The notes: generated by a model not told the origin, from the sequence alone. Counted from the stretch's first letter, positions 6,245 through 57,152 are shown. The stretch: DNA of 64,000 nt from Amoebidium appalachense (GCA_963693365.1 CAVNZM010000001.1:1114054-1178053); one strand, 5' to 3'. Made by a program: numbers and translations.

Positions 6245-6333
6245 GGATTGGAGTGGATTCGAACCGCAGTCTTGGGCAAAATTATCCTCCTTCGAGCTAC
6301 TGCCTTGCCCAGGTACGCCATTCGGTCACTTCC
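6245..6333 (-). ncRNA. tRNA-like Pol III unit (SINE head or small RNA)
   Basis: Minus strand has A-box-like TGACCGAATGG, a consensus B box GGTTCGAATCC (6255-6265), internal stem TGGGCAA/TTGCCCA and an oligo-T terminator directly after. It does not form a canonical cloverleaf. Confidence 0.5.
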
Positions 6334-7031: not shown

Positions 7032-17991
<10,960 letters not shown>

Positions 17992-24315: not shown

Positions 24316-24385
24316 GCCATCGAATACGCTCACGTTGCCCTTTCAAGAGGCCTGTAGAAGCACCGTAGTTTTTGAAGTGGGGAAG

Positions 24386-27300
24386 ATGACCAAGGGCGTG
24401 GGCAGTAAGGCTTCGAGCAAGTCAACCACAAACAACGGTAGCCGCAAAAGCCCCCGAAAGGCCAGTCAGGGCAGAGTAGCAACGCCGGCAGCAAAGGGGG
24501 CAGTAAAGTGGTTGTGCCCGGTAAGGGTACTGGGGGTACTGGCCTGAAGGCACCGAAGCCACAGGTGAAGGTACGCAGCAAGGCTGAGCAGAATGCCCAG
24601 CGCATCATGCAGGGCATTGACACGACACCTGCATCCTACCGGCCGCGCAAAAAAGGTGAGGGGTGCTTACTGTTAGTGTTTGTGACGTACTTGGGTGCCC
24701 ATATAAGTAGCAGTGTGAAAGCTTTTCCTGTTCAGTTTACCGTTGTTGCCATACAGCACACATCTACTGTATTTCAACATCATCTCATTCTGAGATCATG
24801 TTAACCAGTTTGTGACAGTCCACTTGCGAAACATTATGGCTTCACGTAGAGTGTTAGTGGCTCTTGCCGCGCTACACGCAGCGGAGGCAAAAGGGGAAGG
24901 TGTTGCAGTGTCACGTTCGTTTACGTCACCCATTCCTTTTCGCGAAGCAAGAAAGTTTTTGTTGCAAGATGACGTTTCAAAAACAGTCGTCAAGCACACT
25001 GTCGTGCCTGTATCTGAAACGTGGGCCGAACTCAGGCGCACCAAAGCTAGGTGCTCAATCACTAAGTGTGACGGGCACGAGGACGACAGTTTTTGGTTGT
25101 CAAAGATGGAACCAAGTGACCTAGTTGAGCTTTACGACAGGCTCATCGTAGCTGAGGGGGGCATGTATCTGTCAGATTCTCACGTCGATGGTGCACACAT
25201 CACAGACAGTCTTTATCCCGACCTCACATACTTCTGTAACCACACCCCCTTGGGTGTGCAACACTATGAAGAAGAGATGGAAGGGCTCAATCTGGCGCTT
25301 GCTTACGCTCAGGTGTCGGTAGTCGGCATAACACGTTTCGCTGGTCACGTAGAAGATGCGGGTCTCCCAGCAGCAAGCATTCTCGTTTGTGGTTACAAAG
25401 TTTGGTTCGTGCATCCACCATGGCAATACCCACGCATCCTCGAACTTGCCCGCCAAGGCATCCCTGGATTGGCATGCGAGAATCCTTTGCAGCACAAGTG
25501 TTTTCTTCCCCTCTCTGTTTCGTTTCTCATATCACAGGGACTAGCCCCTGAGGTTGTTGTTCAGGGCCCAGGAGACCTTATTCAAACTGTTAAAATTGTA
25601 TAAATATTTGGGATGAAAGCAGAGACACAGTGGTGCAGTGTGAAAACACCACAGACACACACAACAACAAAACACGGAACGATCGGAGCAGTGTACACAA
25701 CAGACATCAATGTTTAGACACGACTGAACTGAATTTATTCTGATCTTCGAATAAATACCTGAAATTCCTCTAAGTCCAATCCATACATGATTTCCGACCA
25801 GTCGGAAATCAGATCTATCTCTAATAGAAACCAATCACTAAGAACCAATTGCTTTCAGAGAGATCCGGTAGCGGAGACGCACACGATAGGACACAGACAC
25901 TAGTTAAGGTCAACTCGTGTCATCATCAAGGAAATTCTAACCTATGACATACTGCAAAGACTCAGACATATCACACTTAACCTTGATGATTGGTTAAAGC
26001 CCGGGAACACATGAAAACTAAAGTAAATTAATGAAGTCTAAACACACATGCTATTCTAAGTGTAGCCTAAGTGTGTTACCGTCCAATGAACACGTATTAA
26101 GTAACACAAATCTACCTAACATATATTAGTAGAAAAGAAATACGATTATACACATGAAGACAAGGAGAGAAAGAAAAGAAAATAAGGAAGGAGAAAGAGG
26201 AAGGAAAAGAGAGCACAGATCAACAAACAAGATAGTAATAGCATAACTATAACCAGAGATATTTACATACACACGAACATGTACACGTCTCTCCCTGAGT
26301 GGGTGGATCCGTGTACACACATATAAATATTCTAATCGATATTACAACACACGATTAAAGCCGATACAACACGATTACAAGTATACAAGCATATCGGAGA
26401 TCGATGCTACACTTTACATAATAGGAGTGTGGCATATACACTAAGCATATGAACTGAAACATAACACAAACTGATAAGATCTTACCACATGTAAATACTA
26501 GGTATTACAACAGTTGGTTCATGAACCAGTCCGCTTGGATGGGGGGGGGGGGGGGGGGGGGGGGAGGGGGTTGTCGTTTTATATATAATGACCGCCTTTA
26601 CTATTTTTATTTTATCCCGTTTCACTCCCAGCGAGGCACTGCCTCAGGGGAGCTTACCGTCTTCCGCCTAGACACAGATCGTACTGTATAGCACACTCAT
26701 AAGTCTGACCCCAACTGGCACTATTTTTAGTTACGCCTTATCCCACGGTTCTAGCCGCAGCAACGCTAGTGGGGAAGTGAGCACAGCTCACTTTAACAAC
26801 ACCAGCCGGGAGCGACTGGATCCGTGTACACACATATAAATATTCTAATCGATATTACAATACACGATTAGAGCCGATACAACACGATTACAAGTATACA
26901 AGCATATCGGAGATCGATGCTACACTTTACATAATAGGAGTGTGGCATATACACTAAGCATGTGAACTGAAACATAACACAAACTGAGAAGATCTTACCA
27001 TATGTAGATACTACGTATTACAACATCCCCACTTAAGACTTTGAAGTTTGTGTTATCATATCCCCACTGAACTAGTGAAATCTCCCCACTTGAGAACAGA
27101 AACGGAAAAAAAAAAAAAATTAAAGTGTGTACTTTTCGGCGGGGGGGGGGGGGGGGGGGAAGAAGGGGGGGAGGGGGGGAAGGGGGGGGGAAAGGGGGGG
27201 GGGGGAGGGGGGGGGGAAGGGGGGGGGGGGGGGGAACCGGGGCAAAAACAACGAATATGTATAACGTGTATAGTCGGGGTTGGATTAACTGGGTTTTAAA

Positions 27301-30300
27301 CCAGTGAAAGATAGAGTAGAGTGATGGTACAGGTCAAACCTTATATATAAACCCTAAGTGGGCATACCCAGAAAGGCAGTATACATATGAAATAATGATT
27401 ATGATAAAGTAAGTAGTAAACATTAGAAAATCACTCTTGAAGTAGGACGGGTCAATCCACAATATCCGGCAGACAAAGTTTAGCACGATGGTTGACATGA
27501 CTCGGGCCGGGGAGGGGTTTGGTGAGGATGTCAGCTAAGTTGTGGGCTGATTCAACGTAGTGGACAACCACATCCCCACTTGCAATGTAGTCCTTGGTGT
27601 TGTGATACCGGACGGCAATGTGTTTGGTACGGTGCTTGATGCCGGTGGAGTTGACGATGGCAATGGTCGACTGGTTGTCACAGTACACCGGAGTCGGAGC
27701 AAGCATGGGGCAGCCGAGTTCCTTGAAGAGGTCACGGACCCAAGCAACTTCTTGGGTGCCAGCATTGAGAGCAATCAGCTCAGCTTCAGTGGTGCTGGTG
27801 GCCGTGATGGGCTGGAGACTTGGAGTACCAGATGATGGGCATACCAGCAAACTCGATGATGTAGCCGGAGGTAGACTTCTTGCTGTCGGCACAACCAGCA
27901 AAGTCAGCATCCGTGTAGCATTCGAGTATGGGGGGCTGGGTGGCCGAGTACTTGTAGTCAATGCCAAGGTCAATGGTACCGAGCAGGTACCAGGCCACAC
28001 GAGGAGAAGGTCCCAGTGAGTCTTGCCGGGGTTGGTGCTGAACCGACCAAGGAAGCCGATGGCATAGGCAATGTCGGGACGTGTGCACCGTGCCACCCAG
28101 AGGAGACGGCCGAGTAACTCACGGTAGGGCACGGTGAACGGTTGGGGGGGGCAGTCAGCCAGGGAGACGGTGGTGCCTGCAGGGATGGGGGTAGACTTGG
28201 ACTTGGCATCGGTGAGGTTGAAGTCGTGGATGATATCCATGATGTAAGACCTCTGGTGCATGTGGAGGTGATGGGGATCAGAGTGATTAAAATCAACACC
28301 GAGCATACGGTCAAATGGACTCATACGACAGCTGGCCATCTTGCTGATGTGGGCAGCCAGGTCACTGGCAGCAGTAGAACCCCGGGTGTTGGTGATGGTG
28401 GAGTCGTCGACGTAGTTACCAGCCCGAACCACATCGTTGTTGGGGAAGAACCGGGGGTAGATGCACGGATCGGTCTTAGTACGGGTCAGGCCATGGGCAA
28501 GAAGAATGCCGTCGAGGAAGTCGTACCAAGCCTTGGAGGCTTGCTTGAGGCCGTACAGGGCTTTCTTGAGTCTCCAGACCTTGCCAAGTGTGGCCATGGT
28601 GATGAATCCCGGGGGTTGTTTCATGTAGATGGTCTCGGTGAGTGGGCTGTTGAGAAAGGCCGTAGACACGTCGAGTTGATGGATGTCATGACCTTCAACA
28701 ACGGCCAGAGCTAGGATAGCACGGAGAGCAGCCGGACGGATGACAGGGCTCTCAATCAACTCATAGTCAACACCGTATTGCTGACTGAAGCCTTGAGCAA
28801 CACCACGTGCCTTGATCTTGGTGTCACCAGCCGAGTTGAGAGTTTTCTCGGAGACAATCCACTTGAAGCCGACGATGTTAGCACCAGGGGGAGGGTCAAC
28901 AAGTTCAAAGATGTCTTTGTCGACGAAGGCTTGATACTCAGCAGTGAGGGCTGACTTGACCTGGTCACCATTGGGTCCGGAACACAGTTGACGGACAAGT
29001 TTGGGTAGTTGGTCGATGTTGATGGGGGGACCGGGGGGAACTGGGAGGGTGGTGGTGGCTTGAAATCCAACATTGCCCTGTAGACGGGCAGAACGACGGG
29101 GTGCAGGAACCGGGGGAGGTGGAGACGGGGGGGGGGGAACTTGGAAGTTCGGAATTGCAGGGGGGGGCAACCTCCGGGCTGGACGGGGCCGAGTGGAAGT
29201 TGTCGGGGGAGCCGGGTCGGATGGGTGTGACGTTGCCAGGGGCAGGATGAGGGTCGGCAGGCTGGACGGGCACGGGGGCAGGGGGGCCGGTGGGGGGGGG
29301 TGTCGGGGGAACGACGATGGCAGGAGGGGGGCCAGAGTACACCAGACAAACATCATCTTCAGTGTCAACTGTGGGGGGTGGGGTGGTCGAGGTAGCAGTG
29401 GTGTCGGGGGTCAGAAGTGTTGATGGAATGTCGGACGGGAGATAAGCTGATTCGTCGAAAATCACATCACGGAAGAGGCCGACACGATGGGTGGTGGGAT
29501 TGAAGATCCGGTGGCAGTGTGATGGAAGATCATAGCCGTTATACATGCCGAGTTTGACGGTGGGGGCCAGCTTGTTCCGTTTAGAGGCTGGCACATGAGT
29601 GTAGGCAGGGCAACCGAACACCTTGAGCTCGGAGATGTCGGGCTTGACACCGTAGAAAACCTCGAATGGTGTACGACCATTGGCAGTCGTGGACGGGGTG
29701 ACGTTGATGATGTAAGCGGCATGTTGGAGGGCCTCAGCCCACAGTTTGGGGGACAGAGACTGATCTTGGACTTGATGGAGGAGGCAACGAACAATCTCTT
29801 GGAGGAACCGCATACGACGTTCAACATAGCCGTTCAGTTGAGGGCAGTCCACCGGAGCATAGCTGGCCTTGATGCCCTGGGAGAGGCAAAAAGCACGGGT
29901 AGCCTTGGAGGTGAACTCAGAGCCGGAGTCGAAGTGGTAGACACCAACTTTGGAGGGGGCATGGGTAGCAACGAGGTTGGTGTGAGCTGTGAGAATGTCC
30001 AGGGTGGTTGTACGGTCGGCCATCGGGTAGATCTTGACGAGTCCAGAGGCACGGCAGACAGTGACGAGAGCAACCTTGGAACCTCCGTACGATGTTGTGG
30101 TAGGCTCAAAAAAATCCCAATGCCATTCATGACCGGGGATGTTGGAGTGAGGACGGTCACCCTTGAACGGAGCCTTGGTGGTTTTACCCATAATGCAGCC
30201 ATGACAATCAGGAACATCACAGTCGAGGACAGACGAGGGGAGACCAATGACAAGGTCGTGTTTCACCATGTCCTTGATGCTGGTCATAGCACGGTGCCCC

Positions 30301-33300
30301 AGACGATGGTGCCAGATGGATGGGTTAACACTGGTAGTGGCAGCCAGAGCCACAGGACGAGTGGGTGGTTGAATGGTGTAGTCCTTGAAGTAATACAGAC
30401 CGTTGTGTAGACGGAGGTTGACGAGATGACGGCCGGTGAGTCGGTCGAAGAGGAATGACGGAGTGGAGGCATCATTCAAATCACCCTTGATGTATTCGGC
30501 AGCAGCTTGGGATGTTGAAATGAGGAAGGCTTGGCCAGACGGGGTGTAGTAGGCTTCAATGGTAAGGGTGGCAGTCCCATGGTCGGTGGTGGTGTTGATG
30601 ACGATATGGCCGGTGTGAGTGGCCAAGACGGGGGTGCCATTGAAGGCAGCAACGGGAGTCGGTGTCGGAAGGGGAGTGAGGTCATGGAAGAACTCACGGG
30701 TGGGGCAGACATTCATGTTGCACCCGGAATCCCAGGCAGGGTCGGAGGACACGGGGACGGAGCTAACATTGTATGCCGAGAAAGCAAAGGAGACAGATTT
30801 CTCACTGCCTTGACGGGAACGGTTGTGTCTGGACATACGGCATTTCGGCTCAGGGCAATCGATGATCGTGTGATCAGGCTCGTGGCAGTAGGAGCATGCT
30901 TTCACGGACGGGGTGTTAGAACGAGCCGGGGAATCAGAACGACGGGAACCCGAGAAACGGGAACGACTGGGGGAACGAGACGTGGACCGGAAGGCAGGCC
31001 GGTGGGGGGAACGGGATCGGGTGTGCTGACGGGAGAGACGAGTTCGGAGGTCCGTGCCAGGGGTACGGTCAAGTCGGTTGCGTAAGTCACTGCGAGGAAG
31101 ATCACGGGGGGGAGCACTGGCATTTAATGCCATGCTGGACTTGGAGACACGGTGGGTACGGTTGCTCCGGAGTTGCATCTTGAGGTCTTGACGTAACTCG
31201 ATGCCCTTGACGTGGTTGTGGAGGGACTCGAAGTCGGGGAATAGCTTATCACCGAAGTGATAGTCTTCGATAAGACGGTTGAACTCAGGGGTGAGGTCGT
31301 CTCTGGTGGTGAGTTCATTGAAGAACTTCTCAGCGAGACGAGTGAAGTGAATGGACTCATCTTGGAGGGACTGGAGCTGGTTCACGATGGTCTGCAGACG
31401 ACTCAGGTAGGTGGTGAATGATTCACCGGGCTGAAGGGCACAGGCATTCCACTGACGGTGAAGGATGCGGATCTGATCGGGTTTGCCTTGGAGGTAGTGT
31501 TGACGGAATTTCCACATGGCCCGTTCAGGGTCCATGCCAATACGGTACTGGGCAACGGTGGTGAGGACGGAAGGGTCGATGTTCTGTATCATATGGAGCA
31601 GGAGGCAATTGCGGGCCTCCTTGAGTTCCGCGGTAGTGCCGTAGCCATAGAAGGGGGGTTCACCGTCAACCGCGACGGTGGTAGGGGGAACGTAGTTGTC
31701 AGCAAGTACAACATCCACGAGTCGGACACCTTTAGTGCCGGTCATCATGCCGAGAAAAATGATTTCCCATTGAAAATAGGTGGTTTTGCTATCGGGACCA
31801 GTCTTCCCTTCACCTTTCCACATGGTTATTTTGTTTACACCAGTTTTGTTTGGATCCATGATTGAAAAACGAGCGCTAGTTCTAGATGTGTGTAGGGAGC
31901 GTGCAAAAGGGCTGCATAACCTGTTAAAATTGTATAAATATTTGGGATGAAAGCAGAGACACAGTGGTGCAGTGTGAAAACACCACAGACACACACAACA
32001 ACAAAACACGGAACGATCGGAGTAGTGTACACAACAGACATCAATGTTTAGACACGACTGAACTGAATTTATTCTGATCTTCGAATAAATACCTGAAATT
32101 CCTCTAAGTCCAATCCATACATGATTTCCGACCAGTCGGAAATCAGATCTATCTCTAATAGAAACCAATCACTAAGAACCAATTGCTTTCAGAGAGATCC
32201 GGTACGCGGAGACGCACACGATAGGACACAGACACTAGTTAAGGTCAACTCGTGTCATCATCAAGGAAATTCTAACCTATGACATACTGCAAAGACTCAG
32301 ACATATCACACTTAACCTTGATGATTGGTTAAAGCCCGGCAACACATGAAAACTAAAGTAAATTAATGAAGTCTAAACACACATGCTATTCTAAGTGTAG
32401 CCTAAGTGTGTTACCGTCCAATGAACACGTATTAAGTAACACAAATCTACCTAACATATATTAGTAGAAAAGAAATACGATTATACACATGAAGACAAGG
32501 AGAGAAAGAAAAGAAAATAAGGAAGGAGAAAGAGAAAGGAAAAGAGAGCACAGATCAACAAACAAGATAGTAATAGCATAACTATAACCAGAGATATTTA
32601 TGTACACACGAACATGTACACGTCTCTCCCTGAGTGGGTGGATCCGTGTACACACATATAAATATTCTAATCGATATTACAATACACGATTAGAGCCGAT
32701 ACAACACGATTACAAGTATACAAGCATATCGGAGATCGATGCTACACTTTACATAATAGGAGTGTGGCATATACACTAAGCATATGAACTGAAACATAAC
32801 ACAAACTGAGAAGATCTTACCATATGTAGATACTACGTATTACAACACAAACAACACCGCTTGCACTGCACTATGGGTTTCAGTGCGGGCCAAACGTATC
32901 GTTTGCGGTGAACACTGCCACAAAGAAGTGGTTAAACCGCTTGGGAGAATACGAGGCGTGTAGCTGCTGGGAGCATTTCATGCCCGACGTCCCAAAGATG
33001 ATTCGTGCGTTTCACTCAGTTCAACAGCACAATTTGCCCGTTGCTTGTGGTGCATCCCCCCCCCCCCCCCCCCCTCCCCCCCCCCCCCCTTGTCCCGCCC
33101 GCACCAGCGCAACCACCTAGTGATAGGGTATTACGGCATGAAAAGTTTACGTTTTGACCTATAGTGTACACGCTGTGCACCACCGCAACCACTTAGTCAT
33201 ACCGTATTACGACATGAAAAGTTTAGGGGTCGACCCATAGTGTACACTGTGCTTCAAGTTATATTCAGTTTTTGTTTTGTACACTGTGCGTGTATATGTG

Positions 33301-34105
33301 TCCTTGCAGGTCATTTACAGTCTCGACTTATGCGATGATGGTGTGTGATTGGTGAATCTTTGTGTTTTTGCGTGCAATGTTTCATAAGCAACCCCTCACC
33401 CTCACAACATAGATCCTCCTCCTGAGCCGGACTTCGGCAGCAACAGTTCGGAGAGCGACTATGCGCCCGGGGGAAGCGAGTCGGAGGAGTCGGAGGAGTC
33501 TGAGGAGACGACCCCCAAGGGCGACAACAAGAAGTCCCGCCCCAAGAAGCAGGGCCCGCCGGCGGACGATGCGGTCCTCAGCGACCCCCTGAGGATGACC
33601 TATTACAGGGTCATCCACTCCGAAAGGTATGTGTGTGTGTTTGTTATGTGAATCATGTTGTTGTTATGTATAATATGGTGTTGGTAATGTGTTTTGTGTT
33701 AACAATGTGTGTGTTTGTTATGTGAATCATGTTGTTGTTATGCCAATATGGTGTTGGTAATGTGTTTTGTGTTAACAATGTGTGTGTTTGTTATGTGAAT
33801 CATGTTGTTGTTATGCCAATATGGTGTTGGTAATGTGTTTTGTGTTAACACTGTATTAATCTGCCGGCATTTGGTATGGTATGGTTTGGTGAGGTAGTGC
33901 CCCCCTGTATTGTCAAGTTGGGCTGTCCTTTTTGGCCTCATACACATACACACAGCTCTTGTTACTCTTCTGTCAAGGGATTAGCATATGTCTAGTTTAG
34001 TGAGGTTGGGAGCTTCTTAGAAATCCGTATATTAGTTCGCTTGTTTTGACTTTTGTTTATGTTCGCTTGCTGCTCTTTTATACTCCTTTTCTTTCCCCCT
34101 GCCCC

Positions 34106-34137
<32 letters not shown>

Positions 34138-40100: not shown

Positions 40101-41091
40101 ATATTTTTAAAGACACACCCCTCCATCCTTCTATTAGACTTACATTTATTCGCACTTTTGTCTTCCCGGCATGTGAATATGGTTTACCCCTTCTCGCCGC
40201 TTGGATCAAGAAAGAGAGAACTAGAGCGCTTAAACCCTTGGCAAATTTCCTTGAAGCAGAAGTTGCCTCCTTTCTATCTAACAACTGTTGTAAACCTGGG
40301 CCTGTAACGCTCTCGATATATGGTCTGGTCCCAATAGCTGCTAGAGTATCCTATCTCGCGCTGAAATTCAATAAGCACATAAGCCGCTTAAAGAAGTATT
40401 TGCCCTCCCACCCTCTCTTCTCTATCCGACCTGTCCCCTCCTCACCTCTCCCCCTCTTTCCTCCCCTCTCTCTCCCCTTCTCCCCTGGGCACAAATACAA
40501 ATAAACCCCGCAATAGTGTGTGTGTGACTTTGGACTGCCACTTACTTATTAAACATGTACACAATCACAAGATAATCACGCAATATAACAAATGGAAAAA
40601 GATACCACACGACACTAGACCCGATGAAAGCATACACCTTGAAAAACTAAGCCTTATGTCTCGTTTTATATATACTGACCGCCTCAACCATATTGCCAAA
40701 TATGGCACTCGCAAGTGTATAACACCTAAATACATATTACCTTCCTGTAGAACTGGTCTTTCTCTAGCTGATGGTATTATTGATCAATTACCACGCTTTT
40801 ACTGTACACGTGCTATACAGTGGAGATCTAATAAGTATAAGGTGGCATCATTTGCATGCCCAAACAACACACACACACACCAGTTTAACCGGTCATGTAT
40901 CGCCAAATGTAGTTTGATAGACCACATAATACCGCAACACACACACGTCACATTCACAACAGACACCCAGAAAGATAGCCTACCTGTAAATTACAACATC
41001 CTTGATTTTATACTAAACACGCGTAACTACGACCTGTTTATTAGATGTATTGATTGGCTTGAGAAACACATCACTACAAAATTATAGCGCA

Positions 41092-41158
<67 letters not shown>

Positions 41159-41190
41159 CCAGCTGATACCGAGTGTCCCGAGGGGAGCCC

Positions 41191-41226
<36 letters not shown>

Positions 41227-44200: not shown

Positions 44201-47200
44201 CACTTCCGAACTTCCAAGTTCCCCCCCCACCGTCTCCACCTACCCCGGTTCCTGCACCCCGTCGTTCTGCCCGTCTCCAGGGCAAGGTTGGACTTCAAGC
44301 CACCACCACCCTGCCAGTCCCCCCCGGTCCCCCCATCAACATCGACCAACTACCCAAACTTGTCCGTCAACTCTGTTCCGGACCCAATGGTGATCAGGTC
44401 AAGTCAGCCCTGACTGCTGAGTATCAAGCCTTCGTCGACAAAGACATCTTTGAACTTGTTGACCCTCCCCCTGGTGCTAACATCGTCGGCTTCAAGTGGA
44501 TTGTCTCCGAGAAAACTCTCAACTCGGCTGGTGACACCAAGATCAAGGCACGTGGTGTTGCTCAAGGCTTCAGTCAGCAATACGGTGTTGACTATGAGTT
44601 GATTGAGAGCCCTGTCATCCGTCCGGCTGCTCTCCGTGCCATCCTAGCTGTGGCCGTTGTTGAAGGTCATGACATACATCAACTCGACGTGTCTACGGCC
44701 TTTCTCAACAGCCCACTCACCGAGACCATCTACATGAAACAACCCCCGGGATTCATCACCATGGCCACACTTGGCAAGGTCTGGAGACTCAAGAAAGCCC
44801 TGTACGGCCTCAAGCAAGCCTCCAAGGCTTGGTACGACTTCCTCGACGGCATTCTTCTTGCCCATGGCCTGACCCGTACTAAGACCGACCCGTGCATCTA
44901 CCTCCGGTTCTTCCCCAACAACGATGTGGTACGGGCTGGTAACTACGTCGATGACTCCACCATCACCAACACCCGGGGTTCTACTGCTGCCAGTGACCTG
45001 GCTGCCCACATCAGCAAGATGGCCAGCTGTCGTATGAGTCCATTTGACCGTATGCTCGGTGTTGATTTTAATCACTCTGATCCCCATCACCTCCACATGC
45101 ACCAGAGGTCTTACATCATGGATATCATCCACGACTTCAACCTCACCGATGCCAAGTCCAAGTCTACCCCCATCCCTGCAGGCACCACCGTCTCCCTGGC
45201 TGATTGCCCCCCCCAACCGTTCACCGTGCCCTACCGTGAGTTACTCGGCCGTCTCCTCTGGGTGGCACGGTGCACACGTCCCGACATTGCCTATGCCATC
45301 GGCTTCCTTGGTCGGTTCAGCACCAACCCCGGCAAGACTCACTGGGACCTTCTCCGTCGTGTGGCCCGGTACCTGCTCGGCACCATTGCCCTTGGCATTG
45401 ACTACAAGTACTCGGCCACCCAGTCCCCCATACTCGAATGCTACACGGATGCTGACTTTGCTGGTTGTGCCGACAGCAAGAAGTCTACCACCGGCTACAT
45501 TATCGTGTTTGCTGGTATGCCCGTCATCTGGTACTCCAAGCTCCAGCCCATCACGGCCACCAGCACCACTGAAGCTGAGCTGATTGCTCTCAATGCTGGT
45601 ACCCAAGAAGTTGCTTGGGTCCGTGACCTCTTCAAGGAACTCGGCTGTCCCATGCTTGCTCCGACTCCGGTGTACTGTGACAACCAGTCGACCATTGCCA
45701 TCGTCAACTCCACCGGCATCAAGCACCGTACCAAACACATTGCCGTCCGGTATCACAACACCAAGGACTACATTGCCAGTGGGGACGTGGTTGTCCACTA
45801 CGTTGAGTCAGCCCACAACTTAGCTGACATACTCACCAAACCCCTCCCCGGCCCGAGTCATGTCCACCATCGTGCTCGACTTTGTTTACCGGATATTGTG
45901 GATTGACCCGACCTACTTCAAGCGTGATTTTCTCATGTGTACTACTTACTTTATCAACATCATTATATCATATGTATTGCCTTTGTGGGTATGCCCACTT
46001 AGGGTTTATATATAAGGTTTGACCTGTACCATCACTCTACTCTATCTTTCACTGGTTTAAAACCCAGTTAATCAAACACCGCCTATACACGTTATATATA
46101 TTCGTTGTTTTTGCCCCGGTTCCTTCCCCCCTCCCCCCCCCCTTCCCCCCCCCTTCCCCCCCTTCCCCCCCCCTCCCCCCCCCTTCTCCCCCCTCCCCCC
46201 CCCCCCCTTCTCCCCCCCCCCCCCCCCCGGGAAAAGTACACACTTTAATTTTTTTTTTTTTTTTTCCGTTTCTGTTCTCAAGTGGGGAGATTTCACTAGT
46301 TCAGTGGGGATATGATAACACAAACTTCAAAGTCTTAAGTGGGGATGTTGTAATACGTAGTATTTACATATGGTAAGATCTTCTCAGTTTGTGTTATGTT
46401 TCAGTTCATATGCTTAGTGTAAATGCCACACTCCTATTATGTAAAGTGTAGCATCGATCTCCGATATGCTTGTATACTTGTAATCGTGTTGTATCGGCTT
46501 TAATCGTGTATTGTAATATCGATTAGAATATTTATATGTGTGTACACGGATCCACCCACTCAGGGAGAGACGTGTACATGTTCGTGTGTACATAAATATC
46601 TCTGGTTATAGTTATGCTATTACTATCTTGTTTGTTGATCTGTGCTCTCTTTTCCTTCCTCTTTCTCCTTCCTTATTTTCTTTTCTTTCTCTCCTTGTCT
46701 TCATGTGTATAATCGTATTTCTTTTCTACTAATATATGTTAGGTAGATTTGTGTTACTTAATACGTGTTCATTGGACGGTAACACACTTAGGCTACACTT
46801 AGAATAGCATGTGTGTTTAGACTTCATTAATTCACTTTAGTTTTCATGTGTTGCCGGGCTTTAACCAATCATCAAGGTTAAGTGTGATATGTCTGAGTCT
46901 TTGCAGTATGTCATAGGTTAGAACTTCCTTGATGATGACACGAGTTGATCTTAACTAGTGTCTGTGTCCTATCGTGTACGCCTCCGCGTACCGGATCTCT
47001 CTGAAAGCAATTGGTTCTTAGTGATTGGTTTCTATTAGAGATGGATCTGATTTCCGACTGGTCGGAAATCATGTATGGATTGGACTTAGAGGAATTTCAG
47101 GTATTTATTCGAAGATCAGAATAAATTCAGTTCAGTCGTGTCTAAACATTGATGTCTGTTGTGTACACTGCTCCGATCGTTCCGTGTTTTGTTGTTGTGT

Positions 47201-47645
47201 GTGTCTGTGGTGTTTTCACACTGCACCACTGTGTCTCTGCTTTCATCCCAAAATACTTATAGAAATTAACACGACCAGCCAGACTACGAGGGCGGGGCCC
47301 ACCCGGCAGAGATAGCAAGGGTAAGTTTTTTGTGCAACTATCCGAACGTGTTGGGATGATCTGATCAGCACTATGATGTACTCGAGTGTGTGTTTTTGTG
47401 TTCATTAGATGCTAATAACATGTCTTCATGGGTCATTGTTTCTAAACGATGCTCTTCAGGTGGTCTACTAGATGTTCCCACATACTTGTAATATGGGATT
47501 TATATGGACATAAGGACAGTCTTGTGTATATCAGTCTTTGAGTTTCCGAGGTATGCGTGTTGGAATACGTGACCATGTATGACAGCAAGAGCCTTGAAGT
47601 ATGTATGTGTCCTAGCTTGTTTGTATTCGTGTCTGCTTTCCTTCT

Positions 47646-47690
<45 letters not shown>

Positions 47691-50600
47691 TCTCTCTCTC
47701 CCCCCCCCCCCCCCCCCGTATCTCTCTCTCCCTTGTTTCTGTGAGCACAGATATCTGTAGATCTGTGCACACCTGACTCTCTTGCCTGATAAGAACTTAT
47801 TGTGTTTTTATTTCTGTTTGCTCTCCTCTGTTTATCTGAGAGGTACTAGTAGCGTGATTGGCTTAGCCTAGCCTAGCCTCACTCGTTGTCTTTCCTTTAT
47901 TTCAAAATGGCCTAGTTTTGTTCTCAAAAGGATGGCTCGCCAATAGTCGCGAGCGAGTACATCTGTAGATTGTGTTGTGCATTCCTGTCTATTAATATAT
48001 GTGTGTTGTGATTGGACAATAGATATATATGGAATTCGGTTTATTGCAAAGTGTCTTCACTTTGAGAGTGTCGACTATTAGGAAATATATGTATTTAAAT
48101 AAGTTTCTTTATAGAGACGAACATAAATATATATGTGAGTTAATAGTGACTAGATGTATAATTACTTAATTTATTTAAGTAAGAGTTTCTAAACTTTAGT
48201 TTAATCGGAAGTTGGAATGCGTATGCTCTGTCGGAATGTGTTTTTCTATCTTCTGATAGAACCGATTGGTTCTCCCTCTTTAGTTGTGATAAAGTGATAA
48301 GTCGCAAGTACAAAAGGAACCGAGAGCACAATAAAGATTCAGTTGTTGTTTGAAATCTTTCAATGTCTCGTGAACAACTCCGATTGCCCTCTCATTAATG
48401 TGTTAGTCGTGTTTTACATGACACCTCTGTGCACTCTGCTCCCTTAGACCCGTACAAAAACAACAGGTTAAAGGCCCATTTTTCGCACGCTCTCGCAACA
48501 CATACTCTCGCTGCAATCAAAAATATTCAAATTTGAATACCGATCTGATTCCTCTCTCACGCATCATCTGACTGATTGATCACCATGTCGGAGAAACCTG
48601 CGTATCTCAACCTCACCCCCTGGAAAGGGGATGACACCACAGACAAGAAGTCCGGCAAACGTCTCACCTATTATGAGTGGGAACCCGTCATCTTCCGGTA
48701 CCTACGTACCACCACCGCGGCCAAGTTAGTGCCCGTCATCAAGGCCCCCGAGTGGGTCGACCCTTCCGACGAGAATGAGTGGCACGGCTATGACACAGAG
48801 GAGGCCTACACCGAGGCTTCCAACTTCCTTGAACAGATGTTTACTCAACTCGTCTCCAATGACGAGCTGTATAACTCTGGTCAAATCCACGATGATGTGT
48901 CACCTGCCCAAGCTTTCCACAACCTCCGTATGACCTATGCGGCTGAACGTGAAGATCGTGCTCGTCAAATCCTCCTCGACTACCATGAGCTTGAACTCAA
49001 GGACTTCAAGACCGTCATGGCCTACCTCACCATGGCACGCCGTCTGTGCACTACCCTGCACATCCTCGAAGAGCCCATTCCTCACAAGACCATGGTTGAT
49101 AACTTCTCCATCCACCTCAAGAAGAACCGTAAGTTAGTTTGTACCGACATCCAGGCCATGATTGCCGACTACTTCCGTCGTACCATTAACTACGAGACCT
49201 ACAACCGTCTAATCAGTGACATCCGAGCTGCAGAGATCCGTGAAGGTCTCATCGACTCTGGGTCCGGGTCCTCCTCCACCGTCCGAACAGCACGTGCCCT
49301 GCAAAGCCGTGTCCTCACCAAGGACGACCTCAGACACCGGATCCCCCGACGTGACAGCTCCGTCTCCCGTCACCCCCGCGGTCGTCCCACCGATCGATCT
49401 CCCTCAGTTGAGACGTGACAGCTCCGTCTCCCGTCACCCCCGCGGTCGTCCCACCGATCGATCTCCCTCAGTTGACCGTGATTACTCACGGTCCCGTTCC
49501 CCCGGCTATCGTTCCCGGTCACCCTACCCCCCACGTAAAGGGGGTAACCGTCATTCCCAGCCAACCCGAGCCAAGACCACTGGCTCCCTCGACTGTGCCT
49601 ACTGTCACGAAGACCATCATGTCACACATTGTGACAAACCTGGCTGCTCAATTGCCCGTCGTCACCGCGCCAGCACCAAGTCTGGAAAAGAGGTGCATTT
49701 TGCCCTCGTGTCCACCACGGCCTCCCTACCCATGGACCCCTGCTGGGACTCGGCTTCCAACGTGCACGTGTGCCCAGTAAAGGAGTACTTCTCTACTCTT
49801 GAGCCATGCCCCCCAACTGACGTCCACGGCCTCGGCATCGTCACTGCACATCACCGTGGTGTCATCAACCTGGCCGTCACCTACAACGGAGTAACATCAG
49901 TACTGAGCCTCAACACCCTCTACGTACCCGACTCCCCAGCCTTCCTGATTTCACCCTCAATGGCCTCCAAGTCGGGTCTCCTTGCCCACCTCGATGATGA
50001 GGATGCATTCCCATCATACCTCTACACTCGTGGTGGCAACATCGTGTGTTCCCTCACAGGCACAGATGGACTGTACTTCATCACTGACTATGAGATACGT
50101 CCCTCCATCCCTCGGACCGTCACTGCTCTAGTAGCCAACGTCAAGGTCAACAATGATCCTCAGCTCTGGCACCACCGTCTCGGCCATCGTGCCCTGTCCA
50201 CCCTCACCAAGATGGTGAGAGGTGACCTCGTGACAGGCCTCCCCTCATCCCTCTCAGTGGCTGACACCACTGACTGCTTCGGTTGTGTCTCCGGCAAGAC
50301 CACCAAGGCCCCATTCTCCGGCACCAGAACCCAGTGCCCCTTCCCCGGTGCCAAGTGGCACATGGACTTCTTCGAGCCTCCCTGTGCCTCCTATGGTGGC
50401 TACAAGGTGGCCCTCGTGTGTACCTGTGATGCCTCCGGCTACACCATCGTGTACCTCCTCCGTGATCGATCCGAAACTCTCGAATACGTCAAGGCCCTGG
50501 TTGAGACTACTGACAAGCAACCCGACAAGGTGGTGACCCACTTCCGTTCAGACTCTGGGTCCGAGTTCACCTCCCACGCTATGGAGCAGTACTGCCAGTC

Positions 50601-53600
50601 CAAGGGCATCATTCAGGAATTTGCCCCGGTTGACTGCCCCCAACTCAACGGCTTCGTTGAACGTAAGATGAGGGATCTGCAGGAGATCGTTCGGTGCTTC
50701 CTTCATCAGGACAAGGCCGACTCCCTTTCCCCCAAGCTGTGGGGAGCTGCTCTCAAGCATGCTGCCTACATCATCAACGTGACCCCGGCCTGTTAAATTG
50801 TATAAGTATTTGGGATGTAAGCAGAGACACAGTGGTGCAGAGTGAAAACACCACAGACACACACAACAACAAAACACGGAGCGATCGGAGAAGTGTACAC
50901 AACAGACATCAATGTTTAGACACGACTGAACTCAATTTATTTTGATCGCTAATAAATACCTGAAATTCCCTTAAGTTAAATCCATACATGATTTCCGACC
51001 AGTCGGAAATCAGATCTATGTCTAAAATAACCAATCACAATTAACTGATTATTTCCCGGATAGATCCGGAGGCACAGGAACGCACACCATAGGTCACAGC
51101 TATAAGAAAGAAAAGAGGTGAAGAGTAACGAGGAAAGAGGTGATGTTTCTAACCTATCATCGGCTACAAAGACTCAGACATTTTCTGACTAAGTCCACTG
51201 ATTGGATATAGTACGGCAACACACAAAACAAAAGTGTTTGACTAAGCTATGAATCATACCTGACAAGCTAAAGTGTAGCCTAAGTGTTTTTCTACCAATC
51301 AAAACATAACGAGTAATATAAATCTACTCAACGTATATTAGTGAGAGAGAAATATAATTATGTGAAAGGAAACAAGAGAAGAAAGAAAGAGAAAAGAAAG
51401 AAGAAGAAAGAGGAAAAAGAAAAGAAAGCAGGACAGAAAACACGAACAGCAAAACACAGTTATAACCGAAGATATTCATGTACACATAACATGTACATGT
51501 TTCTCCCTTACTGGGTAGACTCGTGTACCTATAATCAGTTGCTGTAATCGATATCTAAACACACGAATATAGCCGACACAACACGATTACAAGTACTCAA
51601 ATACACTGGAGATCGATCTCATAATTTACGTACAAGGAGCACATCTCTTTCACTAAGTGAATGAATGAAAACATAACACGAACTGAGAAGATCTTACAAT
51701 ATGTAAATACCACGTATTATAACACGGCCAGAGCTGCCAATGGCCGTACACCGTTTGAAATTTTCTACGGTGTCAAGCCTGACATCTCCCACCTGCACGT
51801 GTTCGGCTGCCCAGCCTATGTACACGTCCCTGCATCCAAACGAGACAAGTTGGCCTCTACCGTCAAACTCGGCACCTACGTGGGCTGGGATATCACCAAC
51901 AAAGCCCACAAGATCATGAATCTACGTGGCAACACGGTCAACCTCTACCGCGATGTCGTCTTCGACGAATCACAATTCACCACGGCATCCAATCAGATTT
52001 CTGTGCAGGCCACCAATCAGACGACCTCAATCGATTCATCCCTGCATTCCGGAAATTCCAATTCCGATGACGATGAAATTCCGTCGGTGATTATCCGTCG
52101 TTCCCCCCGTCGTGTACCTGCCCCCGTGGCTCCACCCACCCCCCCCCCCCCCACCGGTCAGCAACCCCTGCTGCCGGCCCCTGCCGTCAATGACCACGTA
52201 CCTGGTCATCTCACCCCGGTTCGTCCTGGGTCTCCGGAGTTCCACTCGGCCCCGTCCAGCCCCGTGTTATCCGACTCCCCCCTCAACACGGCACCCATCC
52301 CTGGCTTCCAGGCCCCCATCCCCGACCACCGAGTGTCTGTCCCAGACACCCCCCCCGGCCCCTGAGCCCCTCCGTACCGTCCCCCGTCGTTCCTCCCGTC
52401 TCTCCTCCCGGCCTGCCATGGCAATGGTGAGCATCTCCCGACCCAGCCTTGATGTGTCTCAGCTGCCCCGGTCAATTCAGAAGCTGTGCTCCGGCACCAA
52501 GGGTGATGAAGTGGTGACTGCCCTCACTGCCGAGTACAAGGCTTTCATCGACAAGGACATCTTCGACGTAGTTGAGCCCCCCTCCGATGCCAACATCATC
52601 CGATTCAAGTGGATTGTCACGGAGAAGGTCCTCAACTCTGCTGGTGACACCAAGATCAAGGGTCGTGGTGTGGCAAAGGGTTTCACCCAAGTCTACGGTG
52701 TTGACTACGGTGAAAACTCTTCCCCCGTCGTCATGTCCTCCTCCGTCCGTGCCCTGCTTGCCCTCGGTGTGCAACAGGACCACGAGATCCATCAACTCGA
52801 CATCAGCACGGCCTTCCTCAACAGCCCCCTCGACGAGACTTTGTACATGGAGCAACCTCCTGGTTTTATCCTCCCCGGCAATGAACACAAAGTCTGGAAA
52901 CTCAAGAAGGCCATCTACGGACTCAAGCAGGCATCCCTGGCATGGTACGAGTTCTTCAACTCCATTCTCATTGCCCATGGCCTCACCCGTCTCCGTTCCG
53001 ATCCGTGTGTCTACTTCCGTCAGTTCCCCAACGGGCACATCATCCGTTCGGGCAACTACGTTGATGATGCCATCATCACCTGCACACGGCACTCCACCAT
53101 CATGCAGGGGCTTGTTCGTCACATCACGAAGTCTGCCGAGTGCAAGGTCGGTCTGCCAGACATCTTCCTCGGCACCCAACTGCTGTACACCCGTGACTCC
53201 CTCAAGCTGCTGCAGTCCTCCTACATCAAGGACATCATCACCGACTTCAACCTGGTCGATGCCAAGCCTAAGGCAACCCCTATTCCCGTGGGCACCATCA
53301 TCAACGAGACCTCCCTCTCATCCCTGCCCACCACCGTCCCCTACCGTGAACTCCTCGGCCGTCTGCTGTGGGTTGCTCGGTGCTCCCGGCCTGACATCTC
53401 GTATGCCATTAGCTACCTCGGCCGATTCAGCTCCAAGCCCACCAAGACTGCCTGGGAGCTTCTCCTCCGTGTCGTTCGTTACCTGCTCGGCACCATCAAC
53501 CTCGGCCTCTACTACAAGAAGAAGGCCCCCAACAGCAAGGTGCCCATCCTTGAGTGCTACTCGGATTCTGACTTTGCTGGTTGCCCCACCACCCGTCGTT

Positions 53601-54731
53601 CCACGTCTGGGTACGTCATCCTCCTCGAAGGCTCCCCCGTCACCTACCACTCCAAGCTGCAGACGATCACTGCAACTTCCACCTGTGAGGCCGAGCTCCT
53701 GGCCCTCAATGCTGCCGTGCAAGATGTTGTCTGGCACCGTGATCTACTAAAGGAGCTGGGCAACCCCATGACCGAGCCCACCCCAGTGTACTGTGACAAT
53801 CAGTCCACCATTGCTCTGGTCCACTCCAACACCATCAAGCACCGGACCAAGCACATTGCCGTTCGTTACTTCAACACCAAGGACTACATCAACAGTGGGG
53901 ACGTCACTGTCACCTACGTCGACACCAAGAAGAACCTGGCCGACATCTTCACCAAGCCTCTGGCTGGTCCGGCCCACGACACACACCGTGCCAACCTCAG
54001 TCTCCGTGACTGACCCGTGCACTGGTGTTCATCATCAAGTGGTTTCTGAGTAGGTTGGGGCCCTGGACAGCAGTTGACACACCTACGGTGATCAAGATGC
54101 CTCCCAACGAAAGTCTACTACTCCTCCTCGTTTCTCTTCATCAGTGGGGACTCAGTCTTACATCGTCATATGTGTGCATCTTCAGTGGGCATTATTCTCC
54201 ACCATCCGTCGTTTACTTATATTCATATCCCACCATATATATTGGTTTTCTTCTATATTCGACTTTATATATATGTCGAACTGGGATGGCGGCACGATGG
54301 GTGACGTGACTCGGGCCAGGGAGGGGCTTGGTGAGGATGTCGGCCAAGTTGTGAGCTGACTCGACGTAATGGACAACAACATCCCCACTGGCAATGTAGT
54401 CTTTGGGGGGGGGGGGGGGAAGGGGGGAAGGGGGTGGGGAGAGGGGGGGGGGGAAGGGGGGGGGAAGGGGGGGGGGGGGGGGAGAGGGGAAAAAAAAAAA
54501 AAACCCTGAGTTCAACCTCCTCATCGAAGACTACCACCTCGGTGATAAGATGTTCCCCGACTTCGAGTCCCTGCACAACCACATCAAGGGCATCGAGTTA
54601 CGTCAAGACCTCAAGATGCAACTCCGGAACAACCGTGCCTGTTGGAATACGTCACCATGTATGACAGCAAGAGCCTTGAAGTATGTATGTGTCTTAGCTT
54701 GTTTGTATTCGTGTCTGCTTTCCTTCTTTGT

Positions 54732-54820
<89 letters not shown>

Positions 54821-56039
54821 CCCCCCCCCCCCCCCCCGTATCTCTCTCTCCCTTGTTTCCGTGAGCACAGATATCTGTAGATCTGTGCACACCTGGCTCT
54901 CTTGCCTGATAAGAACTTATTGTATTTTATTTCTGTTTGCTCTCCTCTGTTTATCTGAGAGGTAGCGTGATTGGCTAGCCACACTCGTTGTCTTTCCTTT
55001 ATTTCAAAATGGCTTAGTTTTGTTCTCAAAAGGATGGCTCGCCAATAGTCGCGAGCGAGTACATCTGTAGATCGTGTTGTGCATTCCTGTCTATTAATAT
55101 ATGTGTGTTGTGATTGGACAATAGATATATATGGAATTCGGTTTGTTGCAAAGTGTCTTCACTTTGAGAGTGTCGACTATTAGGAAATATATGTATTTAA
55201 ATAAGTTTCTTCATAGAGACGAACATAAATATATATGTGAGTTAATAGTGACTAGATGTATAATTACTTAATTTATTTAAGTAAGAGTTTCTAAACTTTA
55301 GTTTAATCGGAAGTTGGAATGCGTATGCTCTGTCGAATGTATTTTTCTATCTTCTGATAGAACCGATTGGTTCTCCCTCTTTAGTTGTGATAAAGTGATA
55401 AGTCGCAAGTACAAAATGAACCGAGAGCACAATAAAGATTCAGTTGTTGTTTGAAATCTTTCAATGTCTCGTGAACAACTCCGATTGCCCTCTCATTAAT
55501 GTGTTAGTCGTGTTTTACATGACACCTCTGTGCACTCTGCTCCCTTAGACCCGTACAAAAACAACAATGCGTGTTAGAGCTGTGACCTTGACTATGTCAA
55601 ATACATATAATAATGTTCTCATAACTACACTTCATATTCCCCACTAACCCCCCCCCCCCCCCCCTAGAACGTCAAAAGCTGGGACAAGATCTCCAAGGCC
55701 CGTGCCGATGCGGTGAAAGATCTGGACCTGGCGGATGACTACAAGGCCAACAAGAACGCCAAGCAGCAGGACGCTGCAAAGGAGAGGGGCCCCAAGTCTG
55801 TCAAGCGGACTAGGGAAGACGTCGACGACAGCAGCGAGGCCCAGGGCGGTGGCCTAAGCAAGAAGGGCAAGAGTACGGTTGGGTCGCCGGTAGCCCCGGC
55901 CCCGGCTCCCAACCAGCAAGGTGATGAAGAGGGTGGTGAGGAGGAAAATGGGTGGGTTGAGGAGGGGGATGGCGTGAAGGGCAATGAGAAGGTGGAGGAG
56001 GAATTGGATGAAGAAAATGGGGAAGGGGGGCAAACTTGA
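24386..56039 (+). CDS. Transposon-borne JmjC (KDM4/JMJD2-like) histone demethylase fused to an unknown C-terminal domain; 8 exons, about 930 aa, disrupted by two exonic Copia insertions
   Basis: Exons about 24386-24655 (uncertain, one frameshift near 24440), 24819-25587+32853-33049, 33413-33626, 35290-35518, 36006-36335, 36747-36989, 37505-37634+47277-47320, 55668-56039. All GT-AG and phase-consistent after removing TSD-bounded inserts. JmjC motifs FAGHVED, GYKVWF, CENPLQHK, VVQGPGDLI, HYGFQCGPNVSFAVN, W...CSC. Confidence 0.85.
24819..25587 (+). CDS. JmjC domain, N-terminal part (exon 2a)
   Basis: HxE metal ligands at 25346-25354. Aligns by eye with KDM4A FAWHTED...GEPKSWY...CEAFLRHK...VTQEAGEFMIT. 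Confidence 0.88.
25588..32847 (-). mobile_element. Copia family A element (copy A1) inserted in the JmjC exon
   Basis: 5' LTR 31922-32847, PBS GGTTATGCAGCCC, PPT AAGTGGGGA before 27025, 3' LTR region 25588-27025 (rearranged), TSD CAAAC at 25583-25587 and 32848-32852. Confidence 0.95.
27452..31859 (-). pseudogene. Copia gag-pol (Gag CCHC, protease, GAG-pre-integrase, integrase, RT, RNase H) with frameshifts
   Basis: CSYCHEPDHTIIDC, WDSGC, WHHRLGH, HWDFF...FDSGSEF...NGYVER, KARGVAQGFSQ, QLDVSTAFLN, YVDD, RPDIAY, ADILTK; order PR-IN-RT-RH. Confidence 0.93.
32853..33049 (+). CDS. JmjC domain, C-terminal part (exon 2b)
   Basis: Continues in frame across the TSD: TTPLALHYGFQCGPNVSFAVNTATKKWLNRLGEYEACSC. 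Distal His codon at 32869. Confidence 0.88.
33632..33850. repeat. Intronic tandem repeat, about 73 bp x 3
   Basis: TTTGTTATGTGAATCATGTTGTTG recurs at about 33640, 33714 and 33787. Confidence 0.85.
34310..35242 (-). mobile_element. Solo LTR (Copia A, LTR subtype 2) in a JmjC gene intron
   Basis: TGTT...AACA termini, 933 bp, TSD ATTTC on both sides, near-identical to 50791-51724. Confidence 0.93.
38387..38535 (+). repeat. Minisatellite (18-21 bp unit, CTCTCCTATCCTTTTCC..) at the 5' end of the LINE
   Basis: About 7-8 tandem copies, translating as LSYPFP repeats. Confidence 0.85.
38387..41087 (+). CDS. Non-LTR reverse transcriptase (RT ORF to 40504, C-terminal Cys/His domain in a shifted frame 40518-41087)
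   Basis: GPDG, FRPITL, QSAFR, FIDWKTAYDSV, GLLQGSLLSPFLF, LYADD, KCGVL, YKYLGV; C-terminal WR...CP...H...C...C. No endonuclease recognisable in this copy. Confidence 0.88.
41669..45906 (+). pseudogene. Copia A gag-pol with an in-frame integrase deletion and a poly-C frameshift
   Basis: Same protein as copy A1, but GGSK is joined to DTRAF (57 aa missing); RT-RH in ORF 44008-45906. Confidence 0.93.
48585..54013 (+). pseudogene. Copia B gag-pol, disrupted
   Basis: CAYCHEDHHVTHC, WDSAS, WHHRLGH, HMDFF...SDSGSEF...NGFVER, YVDD, ADIFTK. Broken by a 64-bp tandem duplication (49348-49475), a solo LTR and a poly-C frameshift. Confidence 0.92.
50791..51724 (-). mobile_element. Solo LTR (Copia A, subtype 2) inside the Copia B integrase
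   Basis: 934 bp with TSD CGGCC; integrase frame INVTPA/RAANGRTP resumes after it. Confidence 0.93.
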
Positions 56040-57152
56040 AGCGTGAGAGATCTGAGAGTGAGGAGGAGAGCGAGGATGAGGAAGGAGGGAGGAGTCGAAA
56101 GCGGGAGAGGAAGGATAGTGAGAATGAGGGTGGGGAGGAAGAAGGAGAAGAGGGTGGGGAGGAGGAAGTCGAGACTTAGAAATTTGTTGTATTGCAGTCT
56201 CGCTCCTGTGGAACGAGACAAAAAAGTACATCGACTCTGCTCCTGTGGAGCGAGACGCAAAGAAACGTCTTTATGTGCTCTTCTTACCGTCTATTGTCAT
56301 ATTCAAGTTGTATGTGTCCTTACAGTGATTTTATGACGTTTGATGTATGATATCATTATCATACATGGAACATGCCATTATGCATGTAAGGATGGTTTTA
56401 TGACGCACCAAAAAGCACATTGTGCATGTGCATAGCACACCGTTACAACATATGCAAGTGCACATTACGACGTCAAATGTATTAATATGCGTCATCTACA
56501 TTATATGTCGTAATGTCCTCCTATGCATCTGTTTACAACATCGTAATGTAGTCTGTAGTAGGATGCAAATCACATCTTATGATAGGTCATGGGATAGCAC
56601 AAACCCACCCATGGTATATCCACTGGTTGTGTTTCGGATGTCGGAAAGAGCGCCGGAACGATTGGATTTCGATCTATTTTTATAATCAACTGGATGGGTT
56701 TGCAGTGCTCCAATTGCATTGCTTTACAACATACAATAGACATACATGTGATAGTCATAGGTATTTGATCAAGAGAGTATTAATACCATACATTCGATAC
56801 GTTTACAATGCTCCGTTATATGGCTTTACATCAGACCATAGACATGCATAAGATCGTCCACAGGGTGGCGTTCTGATCCTCCCGTCGACGGTGTTACGAC
56901 TGTCTGAATGCTCCCTGGCCGCCGTCATATACCCACCGACTAGACGTCGTATGTTGAATCTATTGCACGTCCATTGCACGTCGGTAAGATGGCTACATTG
57001 CACATCCATTGAACAAGCACTCGCGGGGGTCTATGTACGTCCATTGGTGCATCGGGTGTCGGACCGAGCATATTACGACACATCCATTGGACATCGGGGA
57101 GCAATGATATGTATTTGGGGTTAGTTTTGGAGGGGTTGAGGGGTTTCCGATG

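Follow-up and report, generated by a model that had tools for sequence, protein, structure and literature searches.

We analyzed a 64,000-nucleotide window of the Amoebidium appalachense genome (GCA_963693365.1, CAVNZM010000001.1:1114054-1178053; positions are counted from its first letter, and the plus strand is the one presented) and found support for a JmjC domain of KDM4-like type, retaining its metal ligands, inside a Plavaka DNA transposon that is bounded by terminal inverted repeats (TIRs) and a target site duplication (TSD). The window as a whole is eukaryotic DNA with many repeats. Besides its transposase gene this element carries one other gene, here called the partner gene, and the JmjC domain occupies a single exon of it. 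A previous reading made from the sequence alone had proposed that the element carries a heterochromatin-mark eraser as its partner gene. A KDM4-like domain does lie within a Plavaka element, but we would call it an optional cassette of the partner gene and not equate it with that gene, because the sole splice junction that we observed joins exon 1 straight to exon 3.

The element, of PlavakaB type, extends from 5490 to 57203; its ends read CATCT..TGATG, and the 2-bp TSD AA is present on both outer sides (5488-5489 and 57204-57205). Subtraction of six nested retroelements (~33 kb, each with its own TSD) leaves a core of ~18.45 kb. The TIRs are short and imperfect: CATCTGCAATCTT at 5490 and CATCAGCAATCTT at 57203 agree at 12 of 13 positions, and a second arm of 15 bp is found at 5510-5524 and 57138-57152, with more inverted matches in the subterminal regions. 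The left TIR (5490-5524, plus strand; arms 5490-5502 and 5510-5524) begins with CATCT and the right TIR (57138-57203, minus strand) has TGATG at its end. Plain local alignment had missed these repeats, which were located by k-mer comparison and by use of the published PlavakaB termini. Those termini are given as CATCA..TGATG, with a TSD of 2-3 bp, in the accessible part of the description of the family (Kojima 2025, PMC12730594); the right end here is exact, and the left end has CATCT in place of CATCA. Because one family in the same source, PlavakaB-1_GyCo, also begins with CATCT, we count the left end as a PlavakaB terminus. When 5000 flank pairs were resampled, the CATC..GATG pair occurred in 42 and the pair together with a TSD in 2. 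The core holds two genes arranged head to head, the Plavaka transposase on the minus strand and the partner gene on the plus strand, ~970 bp apart when the long interspersed nuclear element (LINE) between them is discounted. The sequence-only reading had placed the partner gene within TIRs for which it gave no coordinates; the ends at 5490 and 57203 and the AA TSD indeed enclose both genes.

The JmjC exon is interrupted by a Copia long terminal repeat (LTR) retrotransposon (25588-32847, minus strand, paired LTRs, TSD CAAAC). As had been claimed, removing this Copia restores the domain in frame: when it was taken out with one copy of CAAAC, we obtained an open frame of 306 codons that passes through all of the quoted motifs, FAGHVED..GYKVWF..CENPLQHK..GPGDLIQTTPLALHYGFQCGPN..CSC, and retaining both TSD copies produced a stop. 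The 5' half of the domain has a weak match to Pfam JmjC (E=0.004, under the curated cut-off), and its Protein Data Bank matches at E<=1 are all KDM4-family chains (34 of 34; 33 are named KDM4 or JMJD2 and one is named only '2-oxoglutarate oxygenase'). KDM4D is also top-ranked for the 3' half (50 amino acids [aa], E=0.024). A JmjN match, which had been proposed as a check alongside JmjC, was found by Pfam neither in the window piece nor in the closest homolog, and a diverged equivalent is possible in both. This homolog, the Logan protein P0002, is 33% identical to the joined domain over 270 columns that run across the Copia site (E=1e-38), and itself matches Pfam JmjC at E=2.3e-10. Against a profile of the eight-row family alignment, human KDM4A-D and yeast Rph1 reached 139-154 bits, followed by KDM5 and plant JMJ proteins with 91-114 bits and by JARID2 and UTY with 43-45 bits. 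A fold search with an AlphaFold model of P0002 predicted a KDM4/KDM5-type fold, although that model is poor (mean predicted local distance difference test score 41.5, core ~60-72). Word-indexed protein searches, whose blanks are weak, turned up nothing related to the JmjC half among proteins of similar or greater length, and a profile of seven sequences added P0002 alone; scans of IMG/VR and the JGI metagenomes returned no relative of the window JmjC or of P0002. Two divergent JmjC-only proteins with KDM4-type zinc ligands, P0001 and P0008, were seen in whitefly and ostracod annotations, and in one of the two the JmjC core is repeated ~15 times.

To place the active site, we aligned the domain to KDM4D. 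Counterparts of the Fe(II), 2-oxoglutarate (2OG) and zinc ligands had been expected, and all were found: the iron triad is His 25346, Glu 25352 and His 32869, the 2OG lysine is at 25397, and the Cys-His-Cys-Cys zinc site is complete (Cys 25475, His 25493, Cys 32959, Cys 32965). The counterparts of Tyr177, Phe185, Trp208 and Lys241 in KDM4A numbering are present as well. The window and P0002 share 19 of the 20 residues assigned to catalysis, zinc binding or the pocket, as against 89 identical columns of 294 overall, which points to long-term constraint. The numbers of Tyr132, Tyr177, Phe185, Asn198, Lys206, Trp208 and Lys241 follow PMC9712658, in the accessible part of which Tyr132 and Asn198 are pocket residues. 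The N-terminal third of the domain aligns poorly to KDM4, and the substrate-selecting residues that lie there could not be mapped. For the remaining KDM4A residues we use the customary numbers or those of the sequence-only reading. As that reading had also noted, PHD and Tudor readers gave no Pfam match at E<=10 in the scanned exon pieces of the partner gene.

A GT-AG model of the partner gene that runs from the ATG at 24386 to a TGA at 56039 encodes, with no internal stop, 916 aa when donor 33005 is used and 930 aa with the weak donor at 33047. The ~930-aa product that had been proposed for this interval is therefore open at either length, but only when 2 nt at 24473 are omitted; unedited, exon 1 stops after 54 codons. 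These 2 nt are missing at full depth in all four sequencing runs that we compared (X1, X2, X11 and X15), so this copy is either frameshifted or mis-assembled at 24473. A tiny intron at this point is ruled out, as the 2-nt difference is present in all four runs, including X11. The exons, all on the plus strand, are exon 1 (24386-24655), which is basic and of low complexity; the JmjC cassette exon, in two parts at 24819-25587 (modelled phase-1 acceptor, internal ATG at 24836) and 32853-33004 (modelled phase-1 donor at 33005, alternative at 33047); an acidic exon 3 (33413-33626); the modelled exons 4 (35290-35518; G+C at third codon positions [GC3] 0.83), 5 (36006-36335) and 6 (36747-36989; GC3 0.90); exon 7, in two parts at 37505-37634 and 47277-47320, between which the frame returns after subtraction of a second Copia and one TSD copy; and the last exon as read in this copy (55668-56039). 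Because the JmjC exon is phase 1 at both edges, isoforms with and without it are both open; the JmjC-free isoform is 609 aa, again with the 2 nt at 24473 omitted. Pfam gave no match for exons 3-8 and Atlas none for exon 5. A Lys/Gly-rich stretch in exon 1 (24510-24580) is reminiscent of a histone H3 tail, and a short helix motif in exon 4 (35330-35390) of SAP/LEM domains; neither has Pfam support. The acidic frame runs on in another frame past the last exon to a stop at 56177, and a frameshift near the end of the gene is possible in this copy. Given the exon 1 frameshift and the two exonic Copia insertions, we conclude that the partner gene of this copy is dead.

The protein P0002 seems, from its sequence, to have a layout like that of the partner gene. 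It has a basic, low-complexity start and an intron-like linker that ends in Thr-Val before Met-Ala-Ser, and the domain is followed by Cys-Met-Cys, the residues to be expected from a phase-1 GTATGT donor.

The JmjC region is present, whole or in part, in 20 of 24 listed sequencing runs from 6 studies, none of which is recorded as RNA. We compared the contigs of three DNA runs (X1, X2 and X15) and of X11 over 17300-25700; X11 was taken as a probable RNA run on the strength of its GT-AG joint. Contig depth was not read as copy number or expression, nor was the missing X11 coverage of 17300-18704 taken as evidence, and we note that X15 contigs have a depth of ~3 and are possibly carry-over, and that one run may be the window's own source. 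In all three DNA runs, a contig joint from 18870 to 24316 defines a form that lacks the LINE and joins both genes, so that the linkage between the transposase and the JmjC, which had been put forward as a check, is present in other, LINE-free sequenced forms. X1 and X2 contain a second, divergent junction from 18849 to 24400, in which the ATG is kept, at about one third of the depth (about 3:1); the two versions hint at several element copies. A loose end in X2 passes from 25587 directly into the letters of 32853, and contigs of X11 and X15 continue beyond 25587; forms free of the Copia therefore exist. X11 holds two versions of 25332-25587, with 0 and 17 differences from the window, the second being ~93% identical. 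It also holds the one spliced contig, in which a canonical GT-AG splice leads from 24655, using the donor at 24656, to the exon 3 acceptor at 33413 and skips the whole JmjC exon. The form of 916-930 aa that contains JmjC is a model.

The element also has a sequence motif of its own. Across 9.2 kb of non-coding element DNA we count 15 instances of CGACGTC (12 GACGTC sites), against none in 45.5 kb of inserts and flanks, a comparison in which the motif was picked post hoc and the background is mostly coding. Its sites are mostly close to the ends and in the transposase introns; the left subterminal region (5525-6420) is rich in CGACGTC/GACGTC, with sites at 5528, 5630, 5787, 5846, 5905 and 6413.

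From these data we propose that the partner gene encodes a helper for the element. Its 609-aa, JmjC-free product would be an ordinary element helper comparable to VANC or to TnpA, the helper protein encoded by the Spm transposon, and may bind the CGACGTC motif of the element. The JmjC exon was probably captured later than the remainder of the gene, and its inclusion would tether the enzyme to the element, where it would likely demethylate histone H3, most likely at K9, and counter host silencing; with H3K9 methylation on the element lowered, expression of the transposase would be permitted. To this reading, of a 609-aa helper that JmjC inclusion converts into an element-tethered demethylase, we give about the same weight for as against. 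A bolder form of it, which we hold only tentatively and rate well below the first, is a splice-switchable anti-silencing device in which the captured exon turns a motif-binding helper into a self-targeted H3K9 demethylase on CGACGTC DNA, and which may have moved KDM4-like domains between the host and giant viruses.

Several observations weigh against the helper proposal. The skip from exon 1 to exon 3 is the only splice junction observed, and none of the inclusion junctions (24655 to 24819, 33004 or 33046 to 33413) is among the contig joints listed, though contigs drop rare forms. Another X11 contig is unspliced over 24656-25133, into the JmjC exon. Codon usage is discordant too, as G+C at fourfold sites is 66/155 (43%) in the JmjC exon versus 194/244 (80%) in exons 3-8 (p=8e-14), with 269/489 in the transposase; this difference fits an exon that was captured by intron 1 of an already existing helper gene, or one that is rarely translated. 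No recognisable DNA-binding domain was found by Pfam or Atlas in the C-terminal region of the partner protein. Within the pocket, the Asn198 position, which had been noted as apparently substituted, is Ser (25376), and Ser196 and Glu287 are replaced by Ala and Phe. The match of Tyr132 is uncertain, as HMMER pairs the KDM4D Tyr with an Asp, and a Y-L-S-D shared with P0002 lies just upstream. Lastly, the model-based fold search groups with KDM4 the plant proteins JMJ13 and JMJ14, whose structures hold H3K27me3 and H3K4me3 peptides.

These points bear on three other explanations. The JmjC could be a passenger, a KDM4-like segment captured from the host or a giant virus into intron 1, normally spliced out and useless to the element. 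The observed skipping splice and the divergent codon usage of the exon both favor this, and possible donors are abundant, as KDM4-like JmjC-only genes are numerous in the Amoebidium giant-virus insertions described in the accessible part of PMC11244446. A useless segment is harder to reconcile with a frame that stays open for 306 codons without the Copia, with 19 of 20 key positions in common with a homolog of ~30% identity, with phase 1 kept at both exon edges, and with the second, ~93% identical version of the JmjC region in X11, and we regard a passenger as unlikely. We think somewhat less of a stand-alone JmjC protein of ~340 aa that would be translated from the ATG at 24836 on transcripts that retain intron 1 and would act with no targeting partner, like the JmjC-only KDM4-like proteins of giant viruses. 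Such a product would agree with the unspliced X11 contig, with the stop of the exon 1 frame within intron 1 and the 339-aa open reading frame from 24836, and with the Met-Ala-Ser at the corresponding point of P0002. Unspliced contigs would equally come from pre-mRNA or DNA, however, and 17 nt before this ATG there is an acceptor in the correct phase; Thr-Val stands just before Met-Ala-Ser in both proteins, as an ACAG|T acceptor would be expected to encode, and the frame ends in a poly-C tract of the kind typical of introns in this genome.

An active or binding JmjC might also have a target other than H3K9 or H3K36. It could act on a different histone mark or on a non-histone protein, for instance the transposase, or it could bind methyl-lysine without catalysis. 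The three pocket changes, the grouping with JMJ13 and JMJ14 and the poorly alignable N-terminal third all speak for such a target. Against it, the domain's sequence ranks KDM4 and Rph1 clearly over KDM5 and plant JMJ proteins, and the KDM4-type zinc site is complete; moreover, Ser at position 198 is shared with P0002, P0003 and P0005 (4 of 9 rows), and is for that reason not private decay. We judge a different target improbable, to the same degree as the stand-alone protein. Two further settings for the domain were ruled out: a host KDM4 gene merely beside a transposase, as the ends and TSD enclose both genes and PHD and Tudor readers are absent, and a giant-virus remnant as the carrier, as the core consists only of two intron-rich genes, with no viral genes and no IMG/VR relative.

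The Plavaka DDE transposase gene (7032-17991, minus strand) was assigned from PF18759 matches and open models and has eight modelled exons: 17991-17278, 15586-15431, 12893-12529, 12342-~12097, ~9948-~9345, 9017-8860, ~8645-~8309 and 7931-7032. PF18759 (Plavaka) matches two consecutive exons above the cut-off (E=2.1e-20 and 2.3e-8). The model is open over ~1130-1160 aa; 160 exon combinations are open, and some edges are not unique. It contains YSD, TDWPEG, CHKC and ESWERAH, which by motif resemblance are candidates for the D-D-E triad and the C(2)C and H(3-4)H motifs; for the last of these we could see no clear second His. Its introns contain two tandem arrays, of a 366-bp unit (9989-11786, 4.9 copies) and of a 183-bp unit (15704-16998, 7.1 copies). 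A direct repeat of ~170 bp (78%) links a transposase intron (8029-8198) with the right subterminal region (56378-56549), and TACGACGTCA is found in both.

Of the nested insertions, a 5'-truncated LINE (13070-15049, plus strand, TSD 15-16 bp) lies in transposase intron 2, and a LINE with a reverse transcriptase (RT) and RNase H-like open reading frame (18907-24330, minus strand, TSD 15 bp; RVT_1 E=5.5e-21) lies between the two genes. The two belong to one family, which the contigs suggest to be very active. Partner exon 7 is interrupted by a Copia (37635-47271, plus strand, TSD CGACC) that holds further inserts and is of the same family as the Copia in the JmjC exon, in opposite orientation. 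Nested within it is an RT-bearing insert (38387-41421) with 21/39-bp tandem repeats, the end of which is a near-perfect inverted copy of 357-1260. The partner gene introns contain a solo LTR (34310-35242, plus strand, TSD ATTTC) and a Copia of a second family (47558-55566, plus strand, TSD ATGCG), itself the host of a solo LTR at 50791-51724 (TSD CGGCC).

Outside the element, both flanks (4860-5489 and 57204-57547) are purine-rich on the plus strand, and a degenerate zinc knuckle of CCHC type can be read from the left one on the minus strand; for these reasons the Plavaka probably inserted into the gag of an old retroelement. Transfer RNA (tRNA)-like stretches in the left subterminal region (6245-6330, minus strand, and 6560-6610, plus strand) have in common a short box and a T-loop-like motif; ARAGORN and Rfam made no call on them, and they are possibly remnants of tRNA-derived short interspersed nuclear elements (SINEs). 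A tRNA-Ser(GGA)-like gene (1645-1717) lies inside a short repeated unit (1566-1857), pieces of which recur at 234-358 and 1268-1487, and which is possibly a SINE or an LTR fragment.

The closest published systems are PlavakaB families with TET/JBP genes in Agaricus bisporus and Gymnopus confluens (CMCT clade), which bear out the fungal association cited in the sequence-only reading. As far as the accessible part of their description goes (PMC12730594), they are alike in transposase, ends, 2-bp TSD and size (~18-24 kb), and there, as here, an Fe(II)/2OG dioxygenase cargo is proposed to act against silencing. Their cargo is a TET/JBP DNA dioxygenase, whereas the cargo here is of JmjC histone-demethylase type and forms an exon, itself optional, within a larger gene; the term 'JmjC' is absent from the text and supplement searched. 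The Plavaka elements of the red alga Bostrychia, in the portion of the preprint available (bioRxiv 10.1101/2025.02.11.637652), carry accessory genes PAG1-3 with SET and adenine methylase domains and a ParB-like DNA-binding domain fused to a 2OG oxygenase, beside tandem repeats, and modification of the element's own sequence was proposed. Their chromatin- or DNA-modifying cargo is as here, but is spread over three accessory genes instead of one alternatively spliced gene; in that text 'demethylase' does not occur and no KDM4-like domain is named.

In A. appalachense itself, giant endogenous viral elements have been reported to carry KDM4-like JmjC-only genes, for which avoidance of H3K9 methylation silencing was proposed (Sarre et al. 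2024, PMC11244446, in its accessible part), so that a warning about novelty that had been given with the sequence-only reading was justified. In both cases a divergent KDM4 paralog without PHD or Tudor domains rides on a genomic parasite; the parasite there is a giant virus, and here it is a TIR transposon whose 18.45-kb core is free of viral genes. The Plavaka repeats in the same source are intron-poor clusters with tyrosine recombinases, and its text makes no link from them to JmjC. With human KDM4A-D and yeast Rph1 the domain has in common the iron triad, 2OG Lys, Tyr177, Phe185, Trp208, Lys241 and the zinc site; it differs from them in Ser for Asn198, Phe for Glu287, the lack of PHD/Tudor and of a Pfam JmjN match, and a core identity of ~30%. 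VANC of the Arabidopsis VANDAL elements is a tested anti-silencer with element-specific motifs that acts on DNA methylation (Hosaka et al. 2017, PMC5735166, in the part available). The present element is comparable in its putative helper protein and in the tandem repeats and element-specific motifs of its non-coding DNA, but it encodes the enzyme domain itself; no homology of VANC to the partner protein was detected, although no search aimed at it was made.

Plavaka elements with TET, SET or 2OG-oxygenase cargo and KDM4-like genes in endogenous giant viruses are thus already published. In our literature search, outside which most subscription papers fell, we found no description of a KDM4-like exon inside a Plavaka or of a transposon-borne JmjC; cargo that demethylates DNA or methylates histones has precedents among transposons, but a working transposon-borne eraser of histone marks was not found in the literature searched. 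The element offers a compact test system: it has two genes, its catalytic exon can be left in or out, and a candidate target motif is at hand. Should the long isoform prove to exist and to be active, it would be a natural sequence-targeted histone demethylase, and in microbial eukaryotes KDM4-like domains would have a second carrier in addition to giant viruses. It would also suggest that Plavaka elements recruited different anti-silencing enzymes repeatedly, namely TET in the fungal families, SET and 2OG oxygenases in those of red algae, and JmjC here.

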